NCBI GenBank assembly: GCA_964035575.1
Contig: OZ037836.1
Location: 806,001-870,000, forward strand
Length of the DNA: 64,000 nt
Source: Rhynchopus sp. YZ270_cl-10
Taxonomy: Eukaryota
Direction: 5' to 3'
The translations under genes and the position numbers were made by a program. Under the pieces are notes generated by a model. The model was not told where the DNA came from. It was given only the letters and a program-made list of their open reading frames with translations, and made no database searches. This document shows positions 1 to 41,735 of this stretch, in pieces. Numbering within the stretch: position 1 is the stretch's first letter; every line of letters starts with the position of its first letter.

Positions 1-314
1 CTGTCCGGCACTTCCAGCACCCGAGCCAGCACGTTCACGTACCGCTCCAGCGCCGACGTCGTCATCGCCAGGGAGAAGGGTCGCCCACGTTGCCCCGGCG
101 CTCGCACCAGCAGCCTCTCCTTCTCCTCCGCGCTCATCCGATCCGACAACATTGCGGCGGCGAACGCCCGTAGGCGCAAAGGGTGCGGCATCTGCCCGAG
201 TCCGCAGGCGCGCGTGTACATTTCGTACTTCCGCACGATGCTGCGCGTCTGCGCCTTCGTCGCGGCACACGTCGCTCGCGCCTCCAGCCCCGCCACCGAG
301 TCCTCCCATCGTGG
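1..314 (-). CDS. N-terminal (core-binding) part of a tyrosine recombinase, in frame after the gag TGA; truncated by the window edge
   Basis: Hand translation after the TGA at 315-317 gives PRWEDSVAGLEARATCAATKAQTRSIVRKYEMYTRACGL...LRAFAAAML...TSALERYVNVLAR, open to position 1. The pattern resembles the YR N-terminal helices seen at 21.9-22.3 kb. The catalytic domain lies outside the window. Confidence 0.55.
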
Positions 315-1706
315 TCACTGCTTCTGGTGTTCGAACGGGCAAGGATGCTTGAGGCACGCAAGCCCCTTCAGGAACCGGTGGCAGGCCTTCCCCTCCGGCT
401 TCTTCGGGGCAGTCTTCGGTGTGGGCTTCGGGGTCTGGGCCGGCCTCGGGGTCGCTCTGCCTGTCGATTTTCTGGGAAAGTGCGTGGTGTTGTGCGTGGC
501 CCCATTCGACTTTCCCGTAGGCCGAAAATCCACCTCGAACCTCCTGCGGGCGTCACGCAGGGCGCGAGGAAGATTATTCGACTCGAGCTGCCTGCGCATG
601 TGTTCGGCCGCCCCCGGGGACCTCGTGGTGTAGGTGGCACGGAGGGCCTCCAGTTCAGCCATGTGCCCCCTCATGCGGCGGAGCCATTCGGTCAGCGCTG
701 CGGGGTTCTGGTTCCGGAAGATCCAAAAGTTTCGGATGGTCAGAAAAGTCCTGTCGCGTTTCTCCTGAAGCCCGTGGTTGCCCAGAAACGCGTACATGTC
801 CGTCCTAGCACGGAGTACCCGCTCAAACTCCGCAAACCAGGACTCGTCAAACGTCTCAGGCCACCTGGACACTTCAGTGTAGCACCGAATGTCTGCACCT
901 TCCTCCTCCTGGTCGTCGTCGGCAGAAGACTGCGTCACAGGGCCCTTCGGTGCGGAGAGCGGCGCGTAATCCGATAAGACCGTCATGGCTTCGGCTTGCT
1001 TGTCGCAGTTGGCGAGCAAACGAGACACCTCTTCAGGCATGCGGTCAAAGAAAAAGTCCCCGTGCTCCTCCGTGTACGCCACGTACAAGGCGTCCGCAGC
1101 CGCCGTTGTCAGCAATGGGAAAATGTCACACGGCGGGTCTCTGCGTCTCTTCCCAGCCAGCTTCGGCGTCGGCGGGACATCAGGCGTCTTGCCCTGCGCG
1201 GGGAGCTGCGGAGGAAGACGCGCCAGCACGGCCGCCGTCACGGCCTCCACCATCTCGGACAACGTCGCAGGGCTTTCGGGGGACGCACGCGGAGACGGTT
1301 TCGCAGCACGCGTCGCAGCCTTCGTCGCCGGCTTCACCACAGGTGGCTTTGTCGTCTGCGTATTCGGTTCCTCCGTCAGGTCGTCGTCGTCGTCAACATC
1401 TGCACCGTTACCCGGCACGTCATCAACGGGGTCCCCTTCATTATCATCCCCATAGTCCCACGCCTCGTACCCGCTCTGATCCCACCCCCCGCGACCCTCC
1501 ATTCCTTCATCCTGGAGGTCGTAACAATATTGTTGGTGGTCGGCGGGCGGGTCTCGCGCCGCCAAAGATGACATTGCCCGATCCAGCTTCTTCTCCATCC
1601 GCGCCTCGCGCTCCTCCAGGTCCGCCCTCTGATCCTCCGCCTGCCTCTTCATGTCTCGCAGAGCCGCAAGGAGCTGCGCCTTCGTGCGGGTGTCCGTGGC
1701 AGGCAT
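315..1706 (-). CDS. Gag-like protein of a tyrosine-recombinase retrotransposon (N-terminal coiled coil, C-terminal CCCH-type Zn finger)
   Basis: 488-aa ORF with likely ATG at 1706 after a pyrimidine-rich leader. C-terminus is CHRFLKGLACLKHPCPFEH. GC-rich like the intact element at 20.6-24.6 kb, and followed in frame by a YR-like sequence. Confidence 0.65.
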   Translation of the reverse strand: MPATDTRTKAQLLAALRDMKRQAEDQRADLEEREARMEKKLDRAMSSLAARDPPADHQQYCYDLQDEGMEGRGGWDQSGYEAWDYGDDNEGDPVDDVPGNGADVDDDDDLTEEPNTQTTKPPVVKPATKAATRAAKPSPRASPESPATLSEMVEAVTAAVLARLPPQLPAQGKTPDVPPTPKLAGKRRRDPPCDIFPLLTTAAADALYVAYTEEHGDFFFDRMPEEVSRLLANCDKQAEAMTVLSDYAPLSAPKGPVTQSSADDDQEEEGADIRCYTEVSRWPETFDESWFAEFERVLRARTDMYAFLGNHGLQEKRDRTFLTIRNFWIFRNQNPAALTEWLRRMRGHMAELEALRATYTTRSPGAAEHMRRQLESNNLPRALRDARRRFEVDFRPTGKSNGATHNTTHFPRKSTGRATPRPAQTPKPTPKTAPKKPEGKACHRFLKGLACLKHPCPFEHQKQ

Positions 1707-1751
1707 AATGAGAGAGAAAGAAGAGAAGAAAAAGAGGGAAAAGAACGGTAA

Positions 1752-1919
1752 AGCTTTTTGATAAAAGTTAATGAAACACAAAAACCAAGCGCGTGTGGAA
1801 GAAAAAAGAAAAGAAAATATTTTTTCTGATTCAAAGTGGTGTTTACGTTTTGGGTACGGGGCGGAGAATAAAATCTGTTCGATAAAAGAAACGCAAGCTT
1901 TTTTGTTTTATCTTGTTCA
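1752..1919. repeat. Interspersed repeat, second copy at ~12349-12518
   Basis: Near-identical aagctttttgataaa...ttatcttgttca segments at both loci. Confidence 0.8.
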
Positions 1920-2103
1920 GATTTTTCGATTTTTTGACAAGGCGCTGGCCCATACAAAGTGCACTGGTGGTGCAGAAAATGGCTGGGGAATAAACTCTAG
2001 ATGCTCAAAACAGCCCAATTCTTGCTTTTTTGGACTTTTTGGTCCCAGAAGGGTACCCAGGTGTAGTGAACAGGCCTCAAAAGCACTTGTGAAAAAAAAA
2101 AAA

Positions 2104-3782
2104 TAGCTATTTATTCGTCTGAGGAAATATTCACTTTTCCTCACACGAGTGTACCTTTCAGAAACGAGTGGCATTTTACCCCACGAGCGAAGCGAGTGGG
2201 ATAAAGTCAGCCACGAGTTTCTGAAAGGGCACGAGTGGAGTGAAAGTGAATATTTCACCAGAATATAATAGTTTTCTCAACTGAAGGAAAAGTAGCTCTA
2301 AGCAAACCCCGTGGAAGAAGTGTGGGGTGAATATGCAGAAAAAAAAGACGATTTTTTGGTGGGAATATTTTTCACAGAAAATCGAATTTCACTATTAAGA
2401 TTGGCTCTGCTCGACACCCAGTAAGGCTACTATTGGCCCCATGGGACATTTTGGCCCGAATACCAGGCCGTATTTTCAAAAGATTGATAATCCCAGTATA
2501 TGGTATAGCCCTGTGGTACCAAATTTTTGGCCGAAAAAATGGACCAAAAAATGGTCATGTTGGTCACGGTGACAAAATGTGAAGCAGAGATATCAAAATG
2601 ACCCACTCTCCCACCCAATTTTTTTTTCGACCCCCCCCTCTACTTTTCCTCACACCAAAAAAAGCCTCACACATAGGCTTTTTTCTACACAAACCCCAGC
2701 CAAAAATTATTGCTACTTTTCCAAATTGCGTGAGGAAAAGTGGCTATGTGTGAGGAAAAGTGAATTTATCCTCACACTTCTTCCACGGGGTTTGCTCAGA
2801 GCTACTTTTCCTCAGTTGAGAAAAAATTTTTTTTCACAAGTGTTTTTGAGGCCTGCTCACTACACCCTAGGTACCCTTCTGAGACCAAAAAGTCTAAAAA
2901 AGCAAGAATTGGGCTGTTTTGAGCCTCTAAAGTCAATTCCCCAGCCATTTTTTGTACCACCCCAGCCATTTTGTATGGGCCAGCGCCTTAGCAAAAAATC
3001 GAAAATCTCAAAAAAAAAATTTTTTTTTCTCAACTGAGGAAAAGTAGCTCTGAGCAAACCCCGTGGAAGAAGTGTGAGGATAAATTCACTTTTCCTCACA
3101 CATAGCCACTTTTCCTCACGCAATTTGGAAAAGTAGCAATAATTATTGGCTGGGGTTTGTGTAGAAAAAAGCCTATGTGTGAGGCTTTTTTTGGTGTGAG
3201 GAAAAGTAGAGGGGGGGGTCGAAAAAAAAATTGGGTGGGAGAGTGGGTCATTTTGATATATCTGCTTCACATTTTGTCACCGTGACCAACATGACCATTT
3301 TTTGGTCCATTTTTTCGGCCAAAAATTTGGTACCACAGGGCTATACCATATACTGGGATTATCAATCTTTTGAAAATACGGCCTGGTATTCGGGCCAAAA
3401 TGTCCCATGGGGCCAATAGTAGCCTTACTGGGTGTCGAGCAGAGCCAATCTTAATAGTGAAAATTCGATTTTCTGTGAAAAATATTCCCACCAAAAAATC
3501 GTCTTTTTTTTTCTGCATATTCACCCCACACTTCTTCCACGGGGTTTGCTTAGAGCTACTTTTCCTTCAGTTGAGAAAACTATTATATTCTGGTGAAATA
3601 TTCACTTTCCCTCCACTCGTGCCCTTTCAGAAACTCGTGGCTGACTTTATCCCACTCGCTTCGCTCGTGAGATAAAGTCTATTACCCCACTCGCTTCGCT
3701 CGTGGGGTAAAATGCCACTCGTTTCTGAAAGGTACACTCGTGTGAGGAAAAGTGAATATTTCCTCAGACGAATAAATAGCTA
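2104..3782. mobile_element. Foldback-like element: ~720-760 bp inverted arms (2104-2826 / 3023-3782) around a ~195 bp spacer
   Basis: Arms are near-perfect reverse complements (mirror ORFs 2430..2618- and 3231..3419+ are identical). Termini are TAGCTATTTATT / AATAAATAGCTA. Confidence 0.85.
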
Positions 3783-4010
3783 ATTTTTTTTTTTTTTTGA
3801 GATTTTTGAAAAATCGGCCGATTTTGCGACCAAATTTGGCTGGGGAATTTCGGCGACCAAAGGGTCCCCCCTTTGGAAAAAAAACGAAATCGACCAAAAA
3901 AGGTACCCTAACATTTCGGTTTTTTTCGGTTTTCATTTCGTTTTTTTCAGTTTTTCTGGTACAAGGGGAAATTTCCCTTTGCGAAAAAAAAAAAAAAAAA
4001 CGAAATGGAC

Positions 4011-9954: not shown

Positions 9955-12007
9955 GGGTCCGTCCGGAAACCCCTCTGGTAAGATTCATCCTTTTGGGGGT
10001 TTTTGAGGTTTTTCGGCTCAAAACACCCAAATAACCCAATTTTTTGATACCCACCATACACCTACCACCCCAGAGGGCATATTTTGGGTATTTACTTTTG
10101 TTTATTTCCCCTCCCCCCTTTTTACTTTTATTTTTTTACGTATTTTTGGACATTTCATAAACATGGCAATGGCAGCAATTAAAGACCTCAATGATAAACT
10201 CAAGCTCTTACCCTCACAAAAGGCATATCATGAACGTGCGCCCAATTCTGGATCACGCCTCACCGTTTTGAGCGCTGCGAAGGAGTTCTTGCGTGTGTTT
10301 GGCGGAGATGCGGAGGGGAGTGTGGCGCTTGTGGCAGCAGCGATCGGCAAAGGGGTACTTCTGCAGCACCTCATCCCTACGCATGTAGCCCGCGTCAACG
10401 CAAGCACTGACGAGGCACGGCGTGCCGTGGTGCATGCCCTGAAGGAGGACGGCTTTAGTAGAAGCATGATACAACGCTCAGGCTTGATTTGTGGTGAGAG
10501 CATCTTCCAAAAATGTGAGTCGAAAGGGGTAGGGGGGCGCCCCACTGTGCTGACGCCCGAAAAGAAGGCGGAAATCGCGGAGGTGGTGGAGAAGCACTCA
10601 GAGTCACTCTCCCGCAAGAGCGCCTCGGGGAGCAAACGGCGGGGCCACGCCGTCTACCTCAGGACTCTCGAGATGCGCAAAACATCATTGTTTAAGCGTA
10701 TCAGCGGCGTTGGGCGCAGTGTGTTTTTCAACCACATGCGCAGGAACCACCCTGAGGCACAGTTCCGGCGCAGGAAGACCGACATGTGCGAGTACTGCGT
10801 CAGCGAGGGGGGAGTGAGAAGGAGCCTAAAGAACCTATTCCAGGCTCGCAACCTGAACATTGCCTTCAGTGCTCCAGCTGAGGACTTCGAGTCTCACCTC
10901 GCATCCGCCCATCGCCTGCCGAAAACGTGGCGCGAAGATGTTCGGGAAAAGATCCAGGAGTTGAAGGACATCGCAATTCACCAGGAGCGGGCTCGGCGTC
11001 AGAGGGCTGTCTACAACAACGTGGTGAAGGAGCCCCCGGCAGACAGCATAGTCATTGACATTGACTTTAAACAAAAAGGTCATTTGCCAATGAAGCCTGT
11101 TGAGTGTTCAGGTGATTTTTACGCTCGCTCAGCATATTCTCATTTGGGGGTAGGTTTGTATTGGGTAGAGAATGGCAAACGTGTGCATAAACACATAGAT
11201 TACGTCCTTCCCAGTATTACCCAAGATGCCTATACTGTTGTGAAGTGCCTCGAACACCTTTTTTCCCAAGATTTCATGCCACAATTTACTAAGATTCAGT
11301 TCTGGGCTGATGTTGGTCGCCATTTCCAGAACATGGAATTGGGCCATTATATTTTGATTAAACTTGCAAAAAAAAAGAAAGCAGATGTCAGTGTTCACTT
11401 TTTTGCCGAGAAACACGGTAAGAATGGGCGCGACGTACACTTCGGTGTCGTTTCGAACCATCTCTCCTATGTTTCTTGTTGTCGGGAGATACTTACCGTA
11501 GAGGACATTGTCGATGCCCTGCAAGAGCTTCCCCACACAGAGGCCTTTGTTATTTTATTCCCTCGTACTCAGACATATCAGTGCAACGTTCTTTCCATCA
11601 ATCTCTTTTGTTCTGTGTACTGCTACTCGAGCAACGGTCGTGTCATTTCAGCTAGTGTGTACTCTGACACGGAGGGAAGCGGTATTAAATATAGAGTCAC
11701 CACATCCAAGGTGACCCGCAAAGTAAAAGTCCCTGCCATTGCCACAGTAGATTTGACAGAGGCCAATGAAACCTTGTCAAGGCGGCATGACAGGATTAAG
11801 AGAAAGGGAGAAGAAATCGAGAAAAACAACAATAAAAGGCAGAAAATCGGATAAAAAGTGAAAATATAGCCTCAGACCCCCCCCCCCCCCAAACCTATTT
11901 TTATATCAGAATATCACTTAGATGCACTTTTTGTGGGGGACATCATGAAAAAAACCCAAAAATACCCAAAAGGATGAATCTTACCAGAGGGGTTTCCGGA
12001 CGAGTCC
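9955..12007 (+). mobile_element. Autonomous DNA transposon, Sola-like, with ~40-bp TIRs
   Basis: GGGTCCGTCCGGAAACCCCTCTGGTAAGATTCATCCTTTTGGG at the left and its reverse complement ending 12007. AT-rich flanks (ATA). Encloses a single 563-aa ORF. Confidence 0.85.
10163..11854 (+). CDS. DDD-type transposase (Sola-like)
   Basis: Motifs GGRPT (HTH linker), KTDMCEYC, IDIDFKQK, WADVGRHFQN, FAEKHGKNGRDVHFG; basic NLS-like C-terminus. Superfamily assigned from motif recall only. Confidence 0.75.
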   Translation: MAMAAIKDLNDKLKLLPSQKAYHERAPNSGSRLTVLSAAKEFLRVFGGDAEGSVALVAAAIGKGVLLQHLIPTHVARVNASTDEARRAVVHALKEDGFSRSMIQRSGLICGESIFQKCESKGVGGRPTVLTPEKKAEIAEVVEKHSESLSRKSASGSKRRGHAVYLRTLEMRKTSLFKRISGVGRSVFFNHMRRNHPEAQFRRRKTDMCEYCVSEGGVRRSLKNLFQARNLNIAFSAPAEDFESHLASAHRLPKTWREDVREKIQELKDIAIHQERARRQRAVYNNVVKEPPADSIVIDIDFKQKGHLPMKPVECSGDFYARSAYSHLGVGLYWVENGKRVHKHIDYVLPSITQDAYTVVKCLEHLFSQDFMPQFTKIQFWADVGRHFQNMELGHYILIKLAKKKKADVSVHFFAEKHGKNGRDVHFGVVSNHLSYVSCCREILTVEDIVDALQELPHTEAFVILFPRTQTYQCNVLSINLFCSVYCYSSNGRVISASVYSDTEGSGIKYRVTTSKVTRKVKVPAIATVDLTEANETLSRRHDRIKRKGEEIEKNNNKRQKIG

Positions 12008-18692: not shown

Positions 18693-18983
18693 GTCTTTGT
18701 TGTGGTTTTGTGTTCTGATCTCTGTGTGTGGTGGTGGGGTGTGGAGGACAACAAGCCTGCAGTCCTTTTCAATGAAGGGTTGAAGGGGAGGCAGGCATGA
18801 GAATAAGGCCCGGACCCCGGACCCCGGACCCGGCCCCCCGGAACCCGACACCCCCCTACCCTACTCTTGCTCCCTTCCCACCCTCTAAGAACTTGTCCAT
18901 TTTGGAAAAGTGACCCCACCATTGGCCGCACGGATTCCGAAAATGCAAATGCCGGTGTTTTTTGGTATTTTCACTTTGCACTC

Positions 18984-20004
18984 TGCCCGGCACTTTGCCC
19001 GGCACCCTGCCCGGCACCCTGCCCGGCACCCTGCCCGGCACCCTGCCCGGCACCCTGCCCGGCACCCTGCCCGGCACCCTGCCCGGCACCCTGCCCGGCA
19101 CCCTGCCCGGCACCCTGCCCGGCACCCTGCCCGGCACCCTGCCCGGCACCTTGCCCGGCACCTTGCCCGGCACCTTGCCCGGCACCTTGCCCGACACCTT
19201 GCCCGGCACCTTGCCCGACACCTTGCCCGGCACCTTGCCCGGCACCTTGCCCGGCACCTTGCCCGGCACCTTGCCCGGCACCTTGCCCGGCACCTTGCCC
19301 GGCACCTTGCCCGACACCTTGCCCGGCACCTTGCCCGACACCTTGCCCGGCACCTTGCCCGGCACCTTGCCCGGCACCTTGCCCGGCACCTTGCCCGGCA
19401 CCTTGCCCGACACCTTGCCCGGCACCTTGCCCGACACCTTGCCCGGCACCTTGCCCGGCACCTTGCCCGGCACCTTGCCCGGCACCTTGCCCGGCACCTT
19501 GCCCGGCACCTTGCCCGGCACCTTGCCCGGCACCTTGCCCGGAACCTTGCCCGGCACCTTGCCCGGCACCTTGCCCGACACCTTGCCCGGCACCTTGCCC
19601 GGCACCTTGCCCGGCACCTTGCCCGGCACCTTGCCCGGCACCTTGCCCGGCACCTTGCCCGGCACCTTGCCCGGCACCTTGCCCGGCACCTTGCCCGGCA
19701 CCTTGCCCGGCACCTTGCCCGACACCTTGCCCGGCACCTTGCCCGACACCTTGCCCGGCACCTTGCCCGGCACCTTGCCCGGCACCTTGCCCGGCACCTT
19801 GCCCGGCACCTTGCCCGGCACCTTGCCCGGCACCTTGCCCGGCACCTTGCCCGGCACCTTGCCCGGAACCTTGCCCGGCACCTTGCCCGGCACCTTGCCC
19901 GACACCTTGCCCGGCACCTTGCCCGGCACCTTGCCCGGCACCTTGCCCGGCACCTTGCCCGGAACCTTGCCCGGAACCTTGCCCGGCACCTTGCCCGGCA
20001 CCCT
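18984..20004. repeat. 12-bp minisatellite (TGCCCGGCACCY)n, ~85 units
   Basis: Directly visible, with variant units GACACC and GAACC. Confidence 0.97.
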
Positions 20005-20634
20005 GTTAAACCCCGACACCCCCACCCATTCCCAGCACCAACACATCCACAACAGAAATTTTACTATGTTATCACCCCAGGCAGCTGTACATGACAGCCT
20101 GTCCGGCACCCCCGCTGTCAAGAGGGGGTCCCGAGAAAGCCCCATTTGTGAATCTTTACATAGATTAGAGTCAGCTTAGAGATCCCCTCACCCCACCCCA
20201 CACCCAACGTGTCGTTCAGCACTCCAAAAAACCGAGACCCCCTCACCCTCACCCCCACCCCCTCCCTAGTAAACTTGTTTAAGCAGCTCTGCTGCGTCTT
20301 GGGGGTCTCTCGATTATATATTTTAGGCTTCGCGTCCTGCATGTTTATTGTCCACTTGCATCTGCAAGGTTGGAAGAGGGTAACAGGGGAAACTCATTAA
20401 AAATCATTCACTCACTCATCAGGATTTTTTGTGTTTCCCCGGTCTCACCCTCCGTACGTTAACTTCGCATAGTGTTTGCCAAAAAATTAAAAGATTGGGG
20501 CGGTAGGGTTTTTTATTCGGATTTGCGTTTTTTGCTTGTTGCTCTTATATAGGGAAAGTCAAAACACACCACCTTCATCAGGAATTTTTCCACAAATTTG
20601 TTTCCCCGGTGTGTTTTCCTTCCCTCGTACGAAT

Positions 20635-21663
20635 ATGGACTTGACAGCTGAGTTTGAGGGGCGCAAGGCCTGTCACTTCAAGGTGAGTGAAGTGATGCGC
20701 GTATGTTGTGCGGGAGCGCCAGATGTGGTGAAGACGGCGCTGAAGGATTCCTTCTTGCCGGGGGACTACATCCTGGCAACCCTGGCAGGATTGGGGGGTG
20801 TGGTGACGGAGAGCGACCTGCGGCAATTGGTGATTGAGGTCACCAGGTCGAATGAGGCGGCGTGGGAGAAGACGAAGCCCCGCCGTCTCGCCCTCTTTCT
20901 GGCCACGGTGAGGAACGGCCTTGGGGACGTGACCTTTGCGCAGTTGCTGAGTGGCGAGGACGCGGCATCTTTCCCTTGCTCTGAGGACGTATCTTCTCCG
21001 AAGGCCTCTGTGGAGACAGAGGAGCAGGCAGTGGCGGCCGAGGCAGTGAAGAAACGTTTTGTGTTTGCGCCGGTGGTACGCGAGACTGATGGGCAGGACC
21101 GCATCGCCGCTTTCGAGGCCGCACAGGACTTCCCAGACGACCAACCGGACGACCGCAGCGACATCCGCAGTGACGACATGGGGCCCGACGCTGAAACCGT
21201 GGCACTCAATCCGACGCGTTGGCAAGAACTCGACAGGTTTGGCCAAACCGAACTGTTGGAGCAACTCGCAAAATACGTGCCTGATAAGGAAGGGGACACA
21301 CGGGACGCGGCACGCGGAACTCTGAACCTGATCCAGAAGATTCTGAAGGGGAAGAACATGGGGGACCTCCTCGTGATCCTCCTGGACGACCTGCTATGTG
21401 TGCACTACCGTTTCACGATGGGGCTGGAGGCGGCCAGGGCGTTCCGTTCCCGTACATCGATGGGCACTTCGACCACCCCCCAACGCCGTGCAGCGATGCT
21501 GGCAGCGACGGCAGCGAATGCGCGCTTTGCAGGCACGAAGAGACGCCACAGCACCACCTCCTCCAACAACTACAACGACAGGGGATCGAAGCGCACGAGG
21601 TTCGACCCATCGGCGACCTTCGGACGGAAAGGAGGCAAAGGGGGGAAGCCTTTTCGCCAGTAG
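20635..21663 (+). CDS. Gag-like protein
   Basis: First ORF of the element (ATG 20635); basic/Gly-rich C-terminus RKGGKGGKPFRQ. Confidence 0.7.
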   Translation: MDLTAEFEGRKACHFKVSEVMRVCCAGAPDVVKTALKDSFLPGDYILATLAGLGGVVTESDLRQLVIEVTRSNEAAWEKTKPRRLALFLATVRNGLGDVTFAQLLSGEDAASFPCSEDVSSPKASVETEEQAVAAEAVKKRFVFAPVVRETDGQDRIAAFEAAQDFPDDQPDDRSDIRSDDMGPDAETVALNPTRWQELDRFGQTELLEQLAKYVPDKEGDTRDAARGTLNLIQKILKGKNMGDLLVILLDDLLCVHYRFTMGLEAARAFRSRTSMGTSTTPQRRAAMLAATAANARFAGTKRRHSTTSSNNYNDRGSKRTRFDPSATFGRKGGKGGKPFRQ

Positions 21664-22942
21664 CCACCACCGCGTCAACATCAACAACAACACCATCTAC
21701 AACTCCGGGGGAAACAAGGGTCAAAATACTGGGTCGAACAGAACGAACTATGGGGTGAATCGACGTCAAAAATCACATCAACTACAACAAACAAAAAGGG
21801 ACGAGGGACGACAGAAGGGAGAAAAGGGACGAACAGGGACGAGGAACTCCCCAAGGAACTGGGTCACAGTGCGACAGAGCGACACGGGGCGAACAGGGCC
21901 GAAACTGGTGACGGACCCGGTGACCCCGCCCAAGGAGGTGCTGCCCCCACCACACCTACCGGAGCACATGTCGCTTGGGACGAGGAAGATGTCGCTGCAG
22001 AGGGCGAAAGCTGTGGAGGACTTGGTGTTTGCGGAACGAGACGGGAAGGTACTGGGGAAGCTGCTGCACCGGACGCTGGAATGGGACCAGCTCGGTCAGT
22101 TTGCGAACGCCCCGAAGTACCGGGCGGAGCAAGACCGGGTCTTCGACCGGTTTATGGAGTGGCGTGCGACGCAGCGCGACGGCCTCCCCCCCGACGACCT
22201 CATCATCGGCTACGCGCACAGGATGCTGGCATCGGCTTCTCCGAAGACTGTACAGACCTACGTGGAGGTGATCGTGCGAAAGTCGCTGAGCATGGGCATG
22301 CGAGGAGTTCGAACGCGGAAGCTGCTGGAGGCAAAGAAAGGACTTATACGTTTGAGCACGATGATCCGCCCGCGACAGGCACCACCAATGACCACCACAG
22401 AAGCTTCAACTGCAATAGAGACGCTGTGGTCGCAAGGGAACAAGCCGGCTGCAGCACTGGCCGCGATTGCATGGGTATCGAGAGCTCGCGTGCCCGACCT
22501 GCGCTTCATCACGAAGGTAGATTGGAGGGAATTCCGCTCGGACACACCGCAGAAGCTGGACACCGTGGGGGGGGAATTCTTTGCGCGGGAGAAAGGATGC
22601 AAGGGATGGCGGCCCCCCATCAACATGCCTCCAGGGAGACTGACTGCGGTAGCGGTGAGATTCATGCGAAGCATCAAGGACGAAAAACAGCTAGTCTTCG
22701 GCGGGAATTCAAATGTGTACGAAAGCCTGAAACGTGCTATGAAGAAGGTGTTTCCCAACGCAGCATGGCTACATTCGTTACGACGGGGGGCGATCCAGGA
22801 GGTGGAGAAGACGGGAGTGGAAAGAAGCGAGCTGCGGGAGCTCCTCAGACACGCGAACGAAGCAGAGACGGTGCGTTACCTGAGGACGAACACACGGGGT
22901 CGACGAACGCTGGAGGCGAATCTGCTGTCTTCTCTTCAGTGA
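21398..22942 (+). CDS. Tyrosine recombinase (+1 frame relative to gag/pol; real start uncertain)
   Basis: Catalytic set ARVPDL (R), REKGCK (K), HSLRRG (HxxR), LLRH (H), VRYL (Y). Confidence 0.9.
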   Translation: MCTTVSRWGWRRPGRSVPVHRWALRPPPNAVQRCWQRRQRMRALQARRDATAPPPPTTTTTGDRSARGSTHRRPSDGKEAKGGSLFASSHHRVNINNNTIYNSGGNKGQNTGSNRTNYGVNRRQKSHQLQQTKRDEGRQKGEKGRTGTRNSPRNWVTVRQSDTGRTGPKLVTDPVTPPKEVLPPPHLPEHMSLGTRKMSLQRAKAVEDLVFAERDGKVLGKLLHRTLEWDQLGQFANAPKYRAEQDRVFDRFMEWRATQRDGLPPDDLIIGYAHRMLASASPKTVQTYVEVIVRKSLSMGMRGVRTRKLLEAKKGLIRLSTMIRPRQAPPMTTTEASTAIETLWSQGNKPAAALAAIAWVSRARVPDLRFITKVDWREFRSDTPQKLDTVGGEFFAREKGCKGWRPPINMPPGRLTAVAVRFMRSIKDEKQLVFGGNSNVYESLKRAMKKVFPNAAWLHSLRRGAIQEVEKTGVERSELRELLRHANEAETVRYLRTNTRGRRTLEANLLSSLQ

Positions 22943-24624
22943 TTCGGGGTCTGCAGGAGGGCTATCGGGGGATATTGGAGGAACATGAGAATGAGGTATC
23001 GGGTGAGCAGTCCGGAGAGTCTTCCCTGACGTGGCCCGATTTGGGTAAGCCACCCCCCAGACAGGCAAAGCTTGACTCCTTCCCGACCTCCACCATCAAC
23101 GTGCAACGTCTGTCGCAACTGGCGACGGAAGCGGGTATGGACCCACATTTCGCAAGCTGGATGACGAACCCTAACGCTATTTCGGAGGTGAAGTCAGGCA
23201 AGATCCCCATCCCAGGACCGAAATCCAACCTCCCTCCCTCTTTTGTGTCGGCATGTTTGAAGGCTGGTGTCTGCATGAAGGTGACGAAACGTGAGTGTGT
23301 CCGCGGAGTGGTCAAGGTGTTTACGGTTCCGAAGTCTGATCCGCTGATTCACCGCACGGTGATTGACGGCCGTCCCATCAACTGCGTGATGCCAAAGCCC
23401 CCAAAGTTCCACCTCTTCGCCCCGCCGCACCTGTTCCACATCCTGAAGCACAGGAAGGCTACGTGGTTGGCAAAAATAGACCTGAAAGGATTCTTCCACC
23501 AACTTCCTATCCACAACAACGTCTCCTCTTTCTTCTGTTTTCGCGTCGGGCAAAGCTGGTACAGATGGACTCGGGTGCCGATGGGCTGGTCTGTGGCCCC
23601 CTACATAGCACAGAACACAGCGGAAGCGCTTGTGGGTAGAGCAGTGGGCGTGCGTGCGATGGTGTACTTGGACGACATCCTTGTCTTCGGAGAGTCTTGT
23701 GAAGGAGTTCAGGCATCGGTAGCAGGGATCCTGGAACGGTTCAGTTTTGCAGGAGCAGAAATAAACGAGAAGAAATCGTGCCTCAGCCCAGTGCGGACTT
23801 TGGAGTACATTGGTGTGGAGTGGTCACCTGAGCAGGGTGTATTGCGGTTTCCGAGCACGTGGAGGGAGAAGGTGATGCTGATTTTTGTTTCATTTGCGTC
23901 TGCGTGGAAGTTGTCGATTCGGCGCATATGGCAGATGGTGGGTATTGCTATGCGAGTGCTACATGTCCTGGGCGTTCCGCTGTGTCACTTCGACGCCATA
24001 CTCCGGTGCCTCAGTGGGGGGTCCACGAAGATCGTGAGAGGCGAACTGGACTGGGACGTAGAGGTGGTGATCCCGGATGACTTGCGGAGGGAGATGGCTG
24101 AGATTGTCGATGCTTTCGTGCGCCCCATTCGGGATTTTTCATTGCCGGAGCCGGCTTCTGCATGGGACACGGTGGTGTGGACGGACGCGAGTACGACTGG
24201 TTGGGGCATTGTGTGGCAGCACCTGGACGATGCCGAGGCCGGGGCGGACTGGGGACAGTGGGTGCAGGCTGCGACGCACCGCGACATCTTCCTGCTGGAG
24301 GCAGAAGCTGCGATGAAGGGCATCAGAGCTGCATTGGAGAGCGGTTCCTCAAAGAGTGGGACCCTCCTGCTGGTGGACAACGAGGGCTTGGCGCATGCGA
24401 TCAGACGGGGACATACAAAGTCTCGTCTAGGGAACCTATTTTTACGTTATATTTTTTCTTTTGTGCAACCACACCACCTTCGTGTTGAGTGGATCGCCTC
24501 AGAGGAGAACAGCACTGCGGATCAGTTATCCCGGCGCACACATCTCTCTGAGGGAACGATAGCGGTACCGCTGTGTTGGGACCGTGTTCACAAGAAGGTT
24601 GATTCTTTTGGTTTTTCAGAGTGA
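21664..24624 (+). CDS. Reverse transcriptase + RNase H (DIRS-class); the frame is open from directly after the gag TAG
   Basis: KIDLKGFFHQ, PMGWSVAP, YLDDIL; RNase H WTDAS, LLEAEA, LVDN, NSTADQLSR. No stop in frame between 21664 and the 22081 ATG (checked codon by codon). Confidence 0.92.
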   Translation, partial: PPPRQHQQQHHLQLRGKQGSKYWVEQNELWGESTSKITSTTTNKKGRGTTEGRKGTNRDEELPKELGHSATERHGANRAETGDGPGDPAQGGAAPTTPTGAHVAWDEEDVAAEGESCGGLGVCGTRREGTGEAAAPDAGMGPARSVCERPEVPGGARPGLRPVYGVACDAARRPPPRRPHHRLRAQDAGIGFSEDCTDLRGGDRAKVAEHGHARSSNAEAAGGKERTYTFEHDDPPATGTTNDHHRSFNCNRDAVVAREQAGCSTGRDCMGIESSRARPALHHEGRLEGIPLGHTAEAGHRGGGILCAGERMQGMAAPHQHASRETDCGSGEIHAKHQGRKTASLRREFKCVRKPETCYEEGVSQRSMATFVTTGGDPGGGEDGSGKKRAAGAPQTRERSRDGALPEDEHTGSTNAGGESAVFSSVIRGLQEGYRGILEEHENEVSGEQSGESSLTWPDLGKPPPRQAKLDSFPTSTINVQRLSQLATEAGMDPHFASWMTNPNAISEVKSGKIPIPGPKSNLPPSFVSACLKAGVCMKVTKRECVRGVVKVFTVPKSDPLIHRTVIDGRPINCVMPKPPKFHLFAPPHLFHILKHRKATWLAKIDLKGFFHQLPIHNNVSSFFCFRVGQSWYRWTRVPMGWSVAPYIAQNTAEALVGRAVGVRAMVYLDDILVFGESCEGVQASVAGILERFSFAGAEINEKKSCLSPVRTLEYIGVEWSPEQGVLRFPSTWREKVMLIFVSFASAWKLSIRRIWQMVGIAMRVLHVLGVPLCHFDAILRCLSGGSTKIVRGELDWDVEVVIPDDLRREMAEIVDAFVRPIRDFSLPEPASAWDTVVWTDASTTGWGIVWQHLDDAEAGADWGQWVQAATHRDIFLLEAEAAMKGIRAALESGSSKSGTLLLVDNEGLAHAIRRGHTKSRLGNLFLRYIFSFVQPHHLRVEWIASEENSTADQLSRRTHLSEGTIAVPLCWDRVHKKVDSFGFSE

Positions 24625-26974
24625 TATGCATTTGTGATTTCTTTTATTCTTTCTCTTTTTCTCTTGTCCTTTCTTCAAAAGAGTGTTGTGGTCGTACACA
24701 TGTCAATCGGACTGGAAACGATGTACCAAAGCGGTATATGGTGTGTTTTCCTTCCCTCGTACGTCACAATAAACGAAACCCCTCCTCACATTGTTTTTGT
24801 TGCGCTTTCAGGACCTCATCGACGGATCACTATTTGTACACCAGATCTCCACCCCCACCCCCACCCCTTGTGAGAATAGCCACCCAGGACCCCGGACCCG
24901 CACCCCCCTAACCTTATTCTCATGCCTGAGGGGAGGGGTTCTTTGAGTGGTCAGCAAAGTGTGAAGAAATAAAGTGGCTTTGAATGGGTGAAGCAAGACA
25001 GGCAAGTTGCCGGCTGCGTGGAGATCACACACGACACGCCTATTCACGTCACGATGAGGCTGGCCGACCGGTTAGGTTGCGATGCCACAGTGATCAGGGT
25101 ACCAGCCTTCTCTTGGGGTGATGGTGTGTACGTGCAGCCCCCTTCCACCATCTAGGATAGGATCTGTGTATCTCAGCGGGTTGAGGCTCGAAACAGAAAA
25201 CGCTGTCAGAAAAGACGGTTGCGAGGGGGATGATGTCGTCACACCATTTTGCTTGTTTGCAGGAAATGAAAGTAATAAGAGTGACAGAAGTGGCAGCAGT
25301 AATGTTGCGAAGGTGATTGGAAACAAAAGGAAACCCTGGTAAAAGGGAACCTTTTTTTAAATGTGGCTGCGTAGATTATTTGCTGCACTCAGAGAAAGAC
25401 AACTGAGTTCCCTCCAATTTAGATGAACAGCACAGAATAGAATAACATGACGGAAAGAATACGAACCTGAAAAACCAAAATAAATACTACAGGTGTCAAA
25501 TAGCTATCTTCACCCACACAGGAAAAACGGGAAACGAAACAGGGGGATAGTTTGTCACTTGTACGCTTCCACCGAAAAAGAAAACTTGAAAGATGAAAGT
25601 GCCTTCCGTGCACACACAGCTGAGGGTGCGATCTTTGATTATGTTGACAACTACTTCACTGCTCCATCCTACTTTCTCAAGCGCCACGACGGATGCGGAC
25701 CCACACGATTGAGGAGCTCCTGCTGTCTGATGACGCGTGGTACCTGCATGTTCCGCAAATACTCAACGTCATGCGAACCCTACTTGGAACTCTTTCTGGA
25801 CAAACACGAAGCCGCTTTGCCACAAGCAGAACCCATGGCATGCCCAGAATCACTGCGCTAGGACGTAGGAAGCAAACCTCGTCCCCTGGCAGACCCTCCA
25901 CCACGGGGAGGTGCTGCCCTGCCACCAACACACCACGTCGTCATTGTGCGTGTCTCTGTCGCTTCTGGCTTTGCTCGGGGGACTCGTCTCTGCTTCGTTT
26001 CGGACGTGCTTCAACCACAAGCTTACTCAGCTTCCCGTTCCTCACTTCGTTGGACACAACACTGCTGCAGCCGGAAAGGTAAATGCTCGTCAACGAAGTG
26101 CAGCCCTCAGCAAAATGCGTAGTATTAGTAAAACTACTCAAACCAATCGACGTCACATTGCTGAGTGGTGATAAATCCAGGGTGGTTAAGCCGCTGCAAC
26201 TCATAAGGAAGCCCGAACCAACTTGCGTCACATTGCTGAGTGGAGATAAATCGATGCTGGTTAAGCTCGTGCAGCCCAAAAGAAAGACGCTACCAATGTG
26301 CGTCACATTGCTCAACCCAGAGAGGTCGATACTTCTCAACGAGGTGCAGAATGACAGGAAGTTGTGTCCAATGTGAGTCACAATGGACTCAGCACTGAGA
26401 TCAAGTCTCGTCAACAAAGAGCTTGACAAGAACCAATTCGGAATGAAAGTCGCAACCTCCGCCTGCAGAAGCAAACACGCCACCTCAGGATCCTCCACAC
26501 TCTCCAACTTCTCGGCTGTGATGTCTGTCACACCCAACGCATGAAGCTCTGCAATGGCTTCTTGTTTCTGCGTTTTTGTGAGGTAGGGGTCCGTTTTAGG
26601 TCTCTGGCAGGCCGGGCCTTCTTTCTGTGGCCTTCCCAACCAAAAGACCCCCAAAAAACACAGGTACCTGCTGCGTTTAGTGGCACTTTACCCCAGTCCC
26701 TGGAACAGATCGGCAAGCCGACCAGCCCAGGTATGCATGCCAACACTACTGGGGGTGCACTGTTCGATAGCATAAAAGAAAAGTCAAAAAGTCAAAAAGA
26801 CAAGAAGGTCAAACAAAATAGGTACTTCGAACAGGGCTGACAGGAGGGGATTCTCACCCGAGGTTCGGTGCCTGTCAGGCTGCGATTAGTGGTTCTGGGT
26901 GATTCCCTTCTTCCGTCCAGGCCCGAACCGGAAACATTAACCTCCGTTTTTCGAAACAATAAAAGTAAAAATGA

Positions 26975-31678: not shown

Positions 31679-32515
31679 GGGTCCGTCCGGAAACCCTCCT
31701 GGTAAGATTCATCCTTTTGGGGGTTTTTTGAGGTTTTTCTGCTCAAAACACCCAAACAACCCAATTTTTTGATACCCACCATACACCTACCACCCCAGAG
31801 GGCATATTTTGGGCATTTATTTTTGTTTATTTCCCCTCCCCCCCTTTTTACTTATATTTTTTTACGTATTTTTGGGCATTTCATAAACGTGGCAATGACA
31901 GCAGTGAAGTTCACTTTTTTGTCGAGAAACACGGTAAGAATGGGTGCGACGCACACTTGGTGTCGTTTCGAACCATCTCTCTGATGATTCTTGTTGTCAG
32001 GAGATCCTTACCGTAGGGGTCATTGTCGGTGCCCTGCGCGAGCTTCCCCACACAGAGGCCTTTGTTATCTCATTCCCTCGTACTCATACGTATCAGTGCA
32101 CCCTTCTTTCCATCAATCTCTTTTCTTCTGTGTACTGCTACCCGAGCAACGGTCGTGTCATTTCAGCGTGTACTCTGACACGGAGGGAACCTTTATTTAC
32201 TATGGAGTCTCCACATCCAAGGTGACCCGCAAAGCAAAAGTCCCTGGCATTGACCCAGTAGATTTGACAGAGGTCAATGAAACCTTGTCAAGGCGGCATG
32301 GCAGGATTAAGAGAAAGAGAGAAGAGATCCAGAAGAACGACAATAAAAGGCTGAAAATCTGATTAAAAAAGCGAAAATATAGCCTCAGACCCCCCCAAAA
32401 ACCTATTTTCATATCAGAATATCACCTAGATGCACTTTTTGTGGGGGACATCATCAAAAAAACCCAAAAATACCCAAAAGGATGAATCTTACCAGAGGGG
32501 TTTCCGGACGAGTCC
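31679..32515 (+). mobile_element. Internal-deletion derivative of the Sola-like transposon at 9955-12007; 4-bp TSD ATAT
   Basis: Same TIRs; joins ~10172 to ~11390 of the full copy; frameshifted transposase C-terminus. ATAT at 31675-78 and 32516-19. Confidence 0.92.
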
Positions 32516-33769: not shown

Positions 33770-36700
33770 CTAGTGCATGGTGATGCGCACAGGTGTGAAG
33801 CTCTTTGCCTGCCACGCGTCGCGGAAGCGTTCGTACACAGGCCCCTCGCCTGTTGCAAACAGTGCCTGTGCCTCAGCTTCGAGGCCGTGTTCCTGTGTGG
33901 TGGTTCGTATTTGAAGGGTTGTTAACAATGGTGTACAGGAAGAATAAATGATGGTTTGTGTGAGTCATGTTAGGTCATGTTGTGTGGAATGTCTTAAATC
34001 GCAAATATCGCTCTAAGATGAAGAGCATAAGCACAAAGGCTACGGACAGCAGTGATGCTGAAGACACATACAGCGTCATCTGTTAGCACCTAGACATACC
34101 TTGAACAGCGACTTAAATATCAGTGTCGCAACAGTGTTCCACTGCCTCATCGGGTCCTTCTTCGAAGCCTCCTCCAGCTGGTACATCCACTCGTCAGTGT
34201 TCGACACGTCTCTGTACAGAGAAGTTCAAACAAACACATCGGCTTCGGAAGCTTCCTGAAAGTCACCCCTTCCACCACCTTCAACACAAACGACGTCTCC
34301 ACCTCGGCATACACTACATGGTCCGTAAGCACACCAAACTCACGCTCCCTGCAGTACCGCTCCAGCGCATAGGCCCACGAGATTATAGGTGACAGGAACG
34401 AAAACCTGCGCATCACAGACGTGCCCATGTTCCCGACACGTCCCTCCCCAGTCACAACCGACGCTGTCGTGTCCACACCCAGCTTCTTCGCAGTTTCACG
34501 GCAGATATGCGCAGAAGTGCACGCATGCACTCGGTGGTTGCCCCCGTGCGTCGCAGCGTTGAACGAACACGCGAACCTGTCACCCATAAACGGCTCCGTC
34601 ACACCCTTCTGCTTCGAGAACACAGCAACGAAGACCTCCAGCAGGTTCGAGTGCAGCTCCAACACCTCTGTGTCGGGCTTGTCCTCGCAGTGTCCGTGGA
34701 AGTCCTTGATGTTCACGACTGTGTAGGAGAAGCGTTTGTGCACCACTGCACACAGGAACGGGTTCAACGATCTGTCGAGACGCTTTGACGACTCATCCTT
34801 CTGTGACAGCGACGCTGAATGCGATGTTACAGACTGAGTAACACTTTTCCGGTCGGACACATCAGTGCTGATATCACCAAGCTGCACAGACTGCGGCATA
34901 AAGCTCTTGTACAGCTTCAGGTTCACAAGCATGTGCCCAATAGCGTGGTTCATCGTGCGCAGCTCACTGATGACGGACGTCTCGTCAGGAACGGTGCTGA
35001 TCTTCAGCACCGCTGCCTTGGCCATAAGCACCGCAGTGTCCTCAAACGGACGTGTCAGCACGTTGTTGAAGAGCATGAACACCACAACAGACGCCATCAC
35101 CAGCGCCACCATCACAAGGATCGTTCTGTTCGCCTTCTGCCGCAGTGCCTTGTTCGTGTTCTTCTCAAGAACGTCCAGATCCTGCAGTGTCCGCATGTTC
35201 GTCGCGTCGATCTTCCGCAGAATGTCCTCACGTGGGATCATCGTCGCAACGGTAAAGGGCTCCATCTCTCGTGTGTCGGAGTTTGTGTCAAACGTCCGTG
35301 TCTGCACAAGGAAGGACTTGCTCACGGGGTTGCGTCTCACTTCGTCAGAAGCATGCAGGAAGTGTGGCGTGTCTGGGAAGTACCTCCGCACAAAGGTCAG
35401 GCTGTCGATGCGACCCTTGAAGAACTGTCCCACGTAGTACGGGTTTGCATGGATACGCGCGTGAATAACAAGTTCAGACCCAGTGCGTGAGTCAGTGCCG
35501 TGAGCATGAAGTGTGCCGTTCACGTACAAGCTGCAACGTCCACCACCCATCACAGCTGTCACCGTTGTCCACGCACCCACAGGGAAGCCACGTCTCCCAA
35601 AGGCATCCACGTAAGGTGCTGTGCTGCACCCATACTGCAGAACAAACAGATAGATCTGCCCGTTCCCAAACAGACGGAAGTTCGTCTCCCCCACAAGCGA
35701 GTCTGTGAACAGACGAGGTGTGGTTGCACTTGGTGATGCTTCGTCGTACAGCACATCAGGCCTGATGCGCATGCTCACCATGAACTCCGTGTAGCGTGTG
35801 AAGTCTGGACGCAACATGCACTTCAGCACGGAGGCTGTGCTGGTTGTGTTCACAACACGCGAGGCGACACAACGACGTCCGTCTGCATGCACAAGCTCCG
35901 CATCGAACCCGTCGTACTTGCTCTTCCACGGCTCCCCTGCTGCACTCGCACGTGACCGCTCCACAACTGGCGCCTGCCGTGTCAGGTTCCTGTACACGTA
36001 CTGCACTGTCGACCCGTCAAACTCAAGCACGTCCTTCCCACGCTGTGTGTCGTGCACAACACAGTTCCCACACCCACCGTCACGCACCTCCGTTTCCCAG
36101 TGGTGCATGCTCGTGTCCACAGCAGCACCGTTCTCCACACTGAACTTTGCGAGTGTTGTGTGCGGCGACTCTATCCAGTAATCATCCTGGTCGAACTCCC
36201 CGTAGTGCTGCACCCATCTGTCCTCTGCTGGCGTTGCTGCTGCACCCGCGTCCAGGTAGCGTGCAAGGCCACTCACATTCATCGCGGGGTGCTCGTCAAT
36301 GGTGTACAGGGAGTACACACTCTTCAAGGTTGGCGCAAACATCATGGCTGTCAGTTCTCTGTCTTTTGCTGTCCCTGTGTTGAAGCCACCCAGAAGCGCT
36401 CTGTCGTGTCTGTCCACCACAAGCACAGTCATGTTCGCCAGGCTTGAGCCTCCAAGCCGTGCTGTGTCAATGGCCAAGGCAATGAAGTCCTCAAGACTCT
36501 CCTGCACAGCAATCGTCCCGTGGTACGGCATTGTGCTGCCCTCCATGTTCGACCCGGTCAGTGCCATGTAGGCAACGATTGGTGGACTGTACTCCCACAC
36601 TGCCGAGTGCAGCTGCACACGTCCTGTCTTCCAGATCACCTTCTTGACCCCGAACTGTGTGCCTCGTGTGACTGCGAGAGGATCGCCGCCCAAGTTGCCG

Positions 36701-38806
36701 ATGTACTCAGTGCTTGCGTTAAGACGCGAACGCGGGTAAATGTAGTAAGGTTCTGTGCTGGGCTCCGCTTCGGAGCCTTCAACCTTCTTGTATGAGAGCA
36801 GACCATACAGTCAACCAGCCTGTGTCTCCTGAATTGTCCCAACCACACCGTCGTCACGTTCCACGTCAGGTCTGTTGTCGTTCTTGATGCAATGGACAGC
36901 AGTGCACCCCATGTAGAAGCCACGTGTGGTGAACACACGCACAAAAAACTTGAAGTGTGTCATTACCGAGTTTGTAAACATCTCAAAAAACCGTGCCTGA
37001 ATGTGCCCAGCTCCCGTCGTAGTGAACACTCACAAAGCCGTTGTGTGTCATCATGACTCTGTCCTCCACTGCATTGAAGCCCACAGTCAGGCCGTCGAAG
37101 ATCTTGTCCATCACAATTGTGCGTGTGATGTTCGACAGCTCAATCGTGTTCTCCATCTCACTCATAACCAGTTTGTCTGCAACCTTCCGCCCGTTCGCCG
37201 TTGCTGTGTCTGTTGAGTCCTGCCCTGCAACGTGGACAAGAGAGAACGTCACAAGCGACGTGATCAGCAGCAGCGACACACTCACAGCCATGCTTGCCAC
37301 CTTCAGCGGGATCGCAAACCCAGACACAGCCATCTCCTCAGGCACCTCCACTGCATCACGGCGCTGCTTCACCACGATCCCTAACATCACCACTGCAGTC
37401 ATCACAACCACCACAAGACACACAACCGTCACAGTGTCGGTCAGGCCCAGATCGTCAGACGTGTCCTCCTCCTCAGCAACAGCCGCTACCTGCAGCGGTG
37501 GCGCCGTCATGGGCACAGTGTCCGACCAGTTCCCGTCAGTGAACGTGAGTGCATCAAGTGAGTAGCCAACACCAGGAATGTGCCTTCCACCACCCCGTGC
37601 GATCCACGCCATGAACTGTGCCGTCACCTTGCGTCCCACTGTGTGCACAGGGATCCCGACACGCATTGAGAATGCCTTCACTTTGTAGTACTCTCGCGAA
37701 CCGTATGTTGTCTTCGTCATGTACACAAACGCCGTGACACCACTTTCTTCAGCGTACCGTACCTGGTGCACAAGCGGACAGGAACTTTGGTAAGACGCAA
37801 AGACCATCTTCCCCTTGAGCGACGCAAAGTCTGAAGCAGCACAGCCCCAACGTGGCAGCTCTGTCGTGTACACTGCTTCGTCCTTCTGTGTCTCGAACGG
37901 AAGTGTCCGCACAAGCTGCAGAAGGGTCTCCCTCTTGCGTGGACGCAGGTCGTTCCCCATGACACACACGTGCTCTGCCTCACCAGGGATCCACATCGCA
38001 AGTGGACACTTCTCGCAGATGCGGTCCTGCTGTGCGTTGTCCACCACTTTGCATGTGTCTGCAAGGTCCACTTTGTTGTTGAAGCAGCCGTCCCACGGGT
38101 AGTCCTCAAGGTTGTCCAGGGCAGTCGGCGGCAGCTCAGAGCACTCAAACTTGATGTGGCCACGGACCCTTGCCCCGCTGTTCACAGCTGCTGCAATGTA
38201 GTCGGTTTCGTGTCTGTCTGCGTGCAGGAATGGGAAGTTCGTTGCTGTTGTGGAAGACGTGCCAGGTAGTGGCTCCCTTCGCTCTGTGAGGGAGTAGTCG
38301 CGCACAATGCCCACAGCAGCACCAGTCTGCTGCACAAGATCCTGCTTCACAACGTACTTGCAGCTACCTCGTGACACAATCACAATCTTCCCATCGTACA
38401 CCTTCCCGTCACCCAAGGAGTAGTCACTTGCCCTGCACCCACGATAGCTTCTCGACTTGATACTCTCGTTCCCGACCACAACAATGTCCATCTCCTTGTT
38501 GTTCAGTGGGTGGTATGCATCAATGTGCCCGTCGGGTGTCCACGGCTCGAACACGTTATCCGTAAGGCAGACCCACATCCCCGCCACCTCGGGCGGCTCT
38601 GTCACGACAAGCCGCACGGGACACTGGTAGTAGCAGTAGTCGTACAGCCGCCACGTGGTCCGGTTGCACATGATGTCCTTGCGCCAGCCATCGTAGATGT
38701 ACCGACTCGGCATCTCGGGGATGAACTTCCGGAGGCAGTCCTGACGGCGCACCGGACACTGCGGCTCTGCACCCCACGCAAGCAGCACCAGCACTGCTGC
38801 CAACAT
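33770..38806 (-). pseudogene. Disrupted paralogue of the PA-PA-LamG-HAMP-cyclase-like receptor; intron 33893-34099
   Basis: High identity to 41736-47731. 2-bp deletion at ~37000, in-frame TGA at ~36811 and a frameshift at ~34210. Last exon 33770-33892. Confidence 0.8.
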
Positions 38807-39952: not shown

Positions 39953-40020
39953 CTGATAAATTGTTGGAGTAGTGTAGTTGCCTCGGGTTGTGTTGCCACA
40001 GTTGTGCACATCTCCACTGT
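39953..40020. repeat. Short (~65 bp) interspersed repeat; further copies at ~41473, ~49209 and ~50922
   Basis: tgataaattgttggagtagtgtagttgcctcg(g)ttgtgttgccacagtt occurs four times, all in the same orientation. Confidence 0.85.
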
Positions 40021-41258: not shown

Positions 41259-41440
41259 CATACTGTGCAGACGAGCCAAAGGTTTGTCGACGAACCTAAA
41301 GTTCGTCGTTTTGGTTCGTCGATGTTCGTCGACGAACCAAAAGTGTCACTTTTATAAGACCCTCCCACACGACGAACCAATGATTTGTCGATCTTCGTCC
41401 GACGAACATCGACGAACCAATGGCACGTCTGCACAGTATG
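41259..41440. mobile_element. MITE with CATACTGTGCAGACG TIR and gtcgacgaacc internal repeats
   Basis: Inverted termini catactgtgcagacg / cgtctgcacagtatg. Confidence 0.75.
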
Positions 41441-41735
41441 CCTAGAGTGTGCTCCACTATACCTTTTTGTATTTTTGATAAATTGTTGGAGTAGTGTAGT
41501 TACCTCGGTTGTGTTGCCACAGTTCTCCACTGTCACTTTTTTTTGAAAAAGAAATTTTCATGTGTTACACAGTGTACACTCATAATAATAATAACCGTGG
41601 TCGTCGTTAGATCGCCGTCGCTAATAGGCGGGGCCCATTTTAGACCAAAATGTTCCTCAAAATCTGGGGTTGTAAAACTGACCCTCCCCGCCCCCTATAT
41701 CCATTTCAATCACACCACTACACAAGACCGCTGAC

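Follow-up and report, generated by a model that had tools for sequence, protein, structure and literature searches.

How a retroelement makes a recombinase whose conserved residues begin ahead of any in-frame start codon is the question raised by the left end of a 64,000-nucleotide stretch of contig OZ037836.1 from Rhynchopus sp. YZ270_cl-10 (hereafter the window). Positions 1-1780 of the minus strand carry the 5' half of element 1, which has the ORF order gag-YR-RT/RNase H. Its gag-like frame ends at a junction that reads CAG AAG CAG TGA CCA CGA TGG and then stays open for 104 codons, up to the window edge. A sequence-only reading of the window had described this junction, and it is read directly on the minus strand. 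The same reading noted that the gag of a second, dissimilar element (element 2, about 20600-24760, plus strand) also ends CAG-stop-CCA-C, and took the shared ending for a conserved read-through signal of the family.

The gag-like ORF1 of element 1 (315..1706, minus strand) encodes 463 aa and closes with CAG TGA. The CAG TGA CCAC junction occupies 311..320, with the UGA at 317-315 and a GTG of the -1 frame overlapping it at 318-316. A C-x8-C-x4-C-x3-H zinc finger, recognised from its sequence, lies just upstream (327..383) and is followed by QKQ-stop; homologues match zf-CCCH families in Pfam. Homologues of ORF1 occur in Diplonema papillatum and Lacrimia lanifica, the sources of the closest named homologues of element 1, which point to a likely diplonemid host. 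Upstream of gag is a short pyrimidine-rich leader (1707..1778), and a step in read depth places the 5' edge of the element likely near 1750-1778. This edge adjoins a very high-copy repeat (1780-3800) with nested long inverted arms (448 nt, 99%), which is MITE- or foldback-like.

The identical 463-aa gag is found on four contigs, and a variant copy, P0049, also has the C-terminus HQKQ, so the stop is not a mutation of one copy. Degeneration of the copies was rejected as an explanation of the gag stops of both elements, since both stops recur in other copies. Positions 187-1085 show no variant among the matches listed, which come from the contigs of two runs, and contigs drop rare variants. One contig reaches 1272 nt beyond the left edge of the window. 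Another, diverged contig matches the YR region over 1-105 (16 differences and 2 gaps in 105 nt) and then departs; it may belong to a sister family whose gag junction is different. Judged on this sequence evidence, element 1 is a real multi-copy element with a predicted start-less recombinase behind an in-frame UGA, and it is called VIPER-like because of its ORF order, gag-YR-RT.

The frame behind the stop is that of a YR N-terminus, as had been proposed. Its 104 codons in the gag frame (3..314, minus strand, cut by the window edge) have a third-position G+C of 0.85, a conserved Trp at codon 3 and a first AUG only at codon 32 (221-219), and the encoded segment is 40-45% identical to D. papillatum YRs. 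A phmmer search of 1.84 billion representatives, with gag read through its stop, matched 16 proteins. Five of these matched best in the frame after the stop, four of the five beginning 0-2 codons after it, and D. papillatum proteins in which the YR boxes are complete are among the matches to the YR segment. The Pfam family Phage_integrase is matched by P0066 (E 4e-5) and P0070 (E 9e-5), both below the curated cut-off. The AlphaFold model of P0066 (mean pLDDT 79) aligns to Cre over residues 7-291 (Z 14.6, rmsd 4.3, 257 aligned; Foldseek E 7.6e-6), and its predicted helices H3-15 and H18-37 align with the Cre N-terminal domain.

Conservation extends to the very beginning of this frame. Within YR codons 1-31, seven residues are invariant in all four lineages, which is about the density of codons 32-104 (19/73). 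Two of the invariant residues, W3 and E4, precede every near-cognate start scanned, the first of which is at codon 7. The corresponding Trp of P0070 is not a by-product of an overlapping AUG, because the codon before it encodes Asp. In D. papillatum, a YR model whose locus tag is next to that of a gag ending HEKQ-stop begins, as called, no earlier than the Met that corresponds to codon 84, which suggests that this pair may be a second start-less family.

Several searches returned little. The 104-aa segment has no Pfam match and, in a direct comparison, no match to the element 2 YR, and PDB sequences gave no useful match. Between the element 2 YR and one relative of the element 1 YR the identity is 26%. 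A word-indexed search for longer relatives gave 917 candidates and no matches, a single-sequence fold gave weak Cre matches only (E 3.5-9; Z 3.6), and the tail of P0065 does not match the YR N-terminus.

Two points absent from the earlier reading concern the -1 frame of element 1, which is open from 552: its GTG overlaps the gag stop, and an ATG follows 5 nt after that stop. The Pol ORF that starts at this ATG (1..309, minus strand; ATG at 309, context CCACG ATG G) overlaps the YR and leads to the RT/RNase H of P0054. A search with the -1 frame found this one protein (911 aa, 100% identical, in a cluster of five), in which RT and RNase H motifs stand toward the end and about the first 330 residues overlap the YR. 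P0054 has a DAS motif and matches RVT_1 at E 4.5e-6, below the cut-off. Neither P0054 nor the Pol of element 2 has an integrase or protease match in Pfam, or a methyltransferase-family match at E<=1. The gag frame contains a single -1 slippery heptamer, G GGA AAG (510..516, minus strand), and it lies inside the open -1 frame. The heptamer is in a 78-codon open stretch for which 4.3 stops are expected (P 0.006, with a boundary chosen after the fact), and no stimulatory hairpin was found after it. The Pol of element 1 is likely made either by -1 frameshifting or from its own AUG.

The catalytic boxes of the element 1 YR would lie outside the window, as deduced from the overlapping P0054. The residues that P0054 allows in the overlapped frame (option sets) were compared with D. 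papillatum YRs, and outside the window P0054 is able to encode the boxes: scores were 204 and 253 against shuffle maxima of 65 and 64 (25 shuffles each), and catalytic-box residues were compatible at 12/13, 12/13 and 11/14 positions. A most-likely decoding of the overlapped frame, 38-43% accurate, gave nothing for P0054 against remote-YR HMMs, which also missed the true YR of element 2, and was dropped. With an end near the optional stops at 315-329, the YR would span about 320 codons.

Element 2 presents the mirror case, with Pol in the gag frame and the YR in +1; the earlier claim that each gag is in frame with a different partner stands. Its gag-like ORF (20635..21663, plus strand) encodes 342 aa and ends TTT CGC CAG TAG CCA CCA. 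The Pol frame (21664..24624) is in frame with gag and runs without a stop for 986 codons, the entire YR overlap among them; its first AUG is at 22081, and it contains RT and RNase H domains (RVT_1 E 2e-21). Under the YR this frame has 0 stops against 10.1 expected (0/5000 synonymous shuffles), and the 139 codons before its first AUG have 0 against 3.9 expected (P 0.013), which is modestly unusual. The related families P0002 and P0046 have long open extensions of 474 and 548 residues; two members of the P0046 cluster were called only from a later Met. The YR of element 2 (21968..22942, about 320 aa) is in a frame open from 21377, has AUGs at 21968 and 21989, shows its catalytic boxes (R...HxxR...H...Y) directly in the sequence, and ends in a CAG TGA that overlaps a Pol-frame GTG. 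Read-through in element 2 would be possible and is not required, because both Pol and YR have later AUGs.

Just before the last gag codon of element 2 stands UUU_CGC (21652-21657), a +1 frameshift-type motif that leads into the YR frame and is of the amalgavirus type (described in PMC5052127). Chance would account for an open +1 frame over the gag tail (P 0.90), and codon 394 of the element 1 gag has another UUU_CGN, which leads nowhere useful. A fold across the element 2 stop is weak (z -1.77, 9/200 shuffles). The C/A-rich spacer that follows (21664-21967), in which the Pol and YR frames are both open, folds worse than 200/200 shuffles (z +2.95 for the first 93 nt). The ends of element 2 share one exact 24-nt direct repeat (20608..20631 and 24740-24763), a candidate A1/A2 split direct repeat, with no B pair seen and no terminal inverted repeat; the 3' end of element 1 is outside the window. 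At 22939-22942 the YR stop overlaps a start-like Pol codon (GTGA; ATGA in P0002 and P0046), as in stop-restart coupling, although Pol is open upstream of this point as well. The first AUG of the Pol frame (309, minus strand; 22081, plus strand) shares letters, as ATGG, with a Trp codon close to the start of the YR in each element; P0002 has a Leu codon at the equivalent place.

The nearest published parallel to element 1 is VIPER of Trypanosoma cruzi, Crithidia fasciculata and Bodo saltans (PMC6681497). Five distinct VIPERs (T. cruzi, three C. fasciculata, B. saltans) were compared at their junctions, by eye and not by script, in parts 1-3 of the six parts of supplement MOESM10. The order is likewise gag-YR-RT/RNase H, Pol overlaps the YR in the -1 frame, and in all five VIPERs gag and YR form one frame across a single UGA. 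The YR box HSIKRGAL resembles HSWKRGAL of the D. papillatum relatives. All five also have a -1 slippery heptamer upstream of the stop, at 7-14 codons as opposed to 64 in element 1; two show what looks like a hairpin around the stop. The coordinate table of that paper, where it was compared, agrees with these frames for T. cruzi and B. saltans, with some off-by-one entries, and two B. saltans copies in it have the frame layout of element 2.

The junctions also differ, as far as those parts of the supplement go. Element 1 has a CCCH finger where VIPER has a CCHC box, and C instead of A at the +4 base. Its Pol-frame AUG follows right after the stop, and no in-frame AUG precedes its first conserved YR helix, whereas all five VIPERs have one (codons 1, 52, 36, 8 and 122). 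In the portion of the main text of PMC6681497 that was available, frameshifts are mentioned only as mutations, and the terms 'stop codon' and 'in frame' are absent.

Likenesses to other elements are partial. TATE (Leishmania braziliensis and others) has the same ORF order as the elements here, with fused ORFs in some copies, and the RTs resemble those of VIPER/TATE by eye; TATE YR ORFs run to 430-980 aa, against about 320 aa here (seen in element 2, estimated for element 1). D. papillatum has >60 ORFs resembling DNA-transposon proteins, TATE included, according to the part of PMC10161547 consulted. DIRS1-like elements, as the sections consulted of PMC3266345 and PMC5633606 describe them, share with element 2 a stop-free frame through another ORF (the 'long ORF overlap'); they have RT before YR, a methyltransferase domain and inverted termini, whereas here the YR precedes the RT, no MT match was obtained and no inverted termini were seen. 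Tca2 (in the part of PMC2194720 seen) and MuLV resemble element 1 in a single in-frame stop after gag, but their read-through product is Gag-Pol, in place of a putative Gag-recombinase in element 1, for which no structure was found. Searches of the open literature on read-through with YR, DIRS or VIPER elements and on diplonemid YR elements found no description of such read-through.

Whether the shared ending of the two gags is a signal can be judged from its frequency and its distribution. The two strands of the window together have 3974 stop triplets, and CAG-stop-CCAC occurs at exactly two of these (21658, plus strand; 320, minus strand), each of them a gag end. The two gags have no similarity (best BLASTP E 4.3), as had been noted, and the RTs are 22% identical. 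A random pair of stop triplets shares an equal flank with a probability of about 2e-4 in the window and 7e-4 in element DNA; such odds are low for a pair chosen beforehand, not for a pair noticed afterwards. All four members of the element 2 gag cluster stop at the same residue. Outside the window, ten families were tabulated, namely the five VIPERs read by eye in the supplement parts above and five distant DIRS-like families. CAG-stop-CCAC is absent from all ten and CAG precedes the stop in just one, so the notion of a conserved family-wide signal is not supported; the contexts differ, and an in-frame UGA is common to all ten.

The codon before the VIPER gag UGA is TCA, AAG, AAA, CAG or AGG, with A after it, in those parts of the supplement. 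The DIRS-like families come from a metagenome scan that gave 27 loci, all 21-32% identical, of which 22 were tabulated and five short matches dropped. Seven loci, amounting to five families, have a gag-UGA-YR-frame junction like that of element 1, in the contexts GTT/CGG, CAA/GGA, AGA/TGT, CCC/CTC and CGT/CTC; one of these loci, L016, is broken downstream. No DNA loci of either element's clade were found in the viral contigs or prokaryote genomes searched. A motif search of the VIPER/TATE supplements of PMC6681497 found no CAG-stop-CCAC in 487,404 characters, an amount far below the two 3-MB files and one in which line breaks can split motifs.

Taken across these sequences, the conserved feature is the in-frame UGA itself and not the 7-nt context. 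The flanks have local explanations: the CCAC of element 1 doubles as the context of the Pol AUG (CCACG-ATG-G), and that of element 2 starts the C/A-rich low-complexity spacer. Gln is the final gag residue in two of five other lineages ending shortly after the finger, a tally of proteins, not DNA, that leaves out one finger-less lineage and one with a 90-residue tail; this weakly suggests a preference at the level of the host. On balance, coincidence together with local constraints is somewhat more probable than a shared signal. The competing reading, that both elements reached one host-tuned read-through context, for the YR in one and for Pol in the other, draws on the low match odds for a single pair, the Gln-final gags and the stop-free Pol frame of element 2. 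We regard it as rather improbable given its absence from the ten outside families, the different stop codons (UGA and UAG), the separate explanation of each CCAC, and the in-frame AUG 22081 of the element 2 Pol, together with the AUGs found in relatives upstream and at the stop of the YR.

Since the conserved YR residues of element 1 begin three codons after the stop and the first in-frame AUG is codon 32, the YR needs entry from upstream. The best explanation, to which we give about an even chance, is that it would be made as a Gag-YR fusion through occasional read-through of the UGA. Gag would be the main product, and a minority of ribosomes would decode the UGA-C stop and produce a Gag-YR protein of about 790 aa. 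Pol, in the -1 frame, would arise from a slip at G GGA AAG (516), a route to which the VIPER heptamers point, or from initiation at the AUG 5 nt behind the stop. Read-through is the simplest route because W3 and E4 precede all starts scanned and no AG acceptor frames W3 without the stop, and the junction has conserved coding directly after a conserved in-frame stop, as do the VIPER junctions read by eye in the supplement parts seen. That part of the earlier proposal stands, as the simplest way to make the element 1 YR, while the CAG-stop-CCA-C context as its family-wide signal is not supported.

MuLV gag-pol read-through involves a downstream pseudoknot; after the two gag stops here no downstream hairpin had support (z -0.46 and -0.40), and there was no Rfam match in 1-26000. 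The element 1 context matches neither UGA-CUA(G), CGG nor CARYYA, the last being the TMV-type read-through context, and has only the +4 C. In mammalian reporters UGA_C is a weaker terminator than UGA_U, in the part of PMC9841425 consulted, and in yeast the sequence of the Tca2 junction was by itself not enough for read-through, in that of PMC2194720.

There are two rival routes to the YR. Translation of the YR might begin by itself, after gag termination or through leaky scanning, at GUG7, CUG10 (GGG CUG G) or AUG32, to yield a slightly truncated enzyme. Near-cognate codons with purines at -3/+4 are present, and the N-terminal 20 residues of the P0066 model have low pLDDT (52-56), both in favour of this reading. 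Relatives can make their YR without read-through, because the VIPERs in the supplement parts seen and the family P0066, which has a Met three residues before the Trp, begin it from their own AUG. All three candidate starts, however, lie downstream of the invariant W3 and E4; the strong Pol-frame AUG at +5 would capture scanning ribosomes before them; and a start at AUG32 would lose the two predicted helices aligned with the Cre N-terminal domain. We consider an independent start unlikely.

A spliced RNA is an equally unlikely source of the YR, through a cis-intron that removes the zinc finger together with the stop, or through a non-canonical or trans-splice; diplonemids have trans-splicing and non-canonical introns. 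One cluster contains eleven D. papillatum gene models, nine of which lack the zinc finger and connect Gag with YR, by two different joints. Of the window's four element stops, three follow a CAG, in two cases together with a pyrimidine run, which is reminiscent of a 3' splice site. Yet no AG separates the element 1 stop from W3, use of the AG at 324, 321 or 318 would leave the stop in frame, and P0002 and P0046 have Met-Ile (ATGA), with no AG, where element 2 has CAG|TGA. In the D. papillatum models, donors vary between near-identical copies and unrelated upstream exons occur in several, as is usual in automatic models; their Gag-YR joints are probably predicted introns.

A broader scheme would treat the two elements as an interchangeable recoding pair by which VIPER-like elements obtain three ORFs from one RNA. 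With gag and YR in frame, UGA read-through would give a Gag-recombinase and a -1 slip Gag-Pol; with gag and Pol in frame, read-through would give Gag-Pol and a +1 slip at UUU_CGN Gag-YR. The window would hold both versions, which would have come to share a single leaky context tuned to the host. We offer this generalisation tentatively, and doubt it more than we credit it.

How VIPER-like elements make YR and RT from overlapping ORFs on one RNA has no prior test in the literature searched. A start-less YR behind a conserved in-frame UGA offers a compact recoding cassette open to experiment, in a group to which the model species D. papillatum belongs, and a Gag-YR fusion, if true, would explain the packaging of the recombinase with RNA. 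The in-frame UGA and -1 heptamers of the published VIPERs, read by eye in the supplement parts seen, extend the prediction to kinetoplastids.

The remainder of the window holds other repeated sequences and genes. A 615-codon ORF (10007-11854) has 54-nt inverted repeats on both sides (9960-10013, 11949-12002) and a partial second copy at about 31960-32510; it is likely to be a DNA transposon, and no Pfam family fits it clearly. A 674-codon ORF with C2H2 zinc fingers at its C-terminus and a core without an assigned family (61604-63628) possibly encodes a transposase. Several copies of a gene family with ubiquitin-like and BspA-type LRR sequences are spread over 6200-29430, and an array of about 1.1 kb of a 12-nt unit, open in six frames, occupies 18834-20005. 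At 34147-47740 there is a tandem pair of large membrane-protein genes, with PA and Laminin_G_3 domains and a tail that looks cyclase-like by eye, one copy of which (34147-38920) is split into two ORFs.
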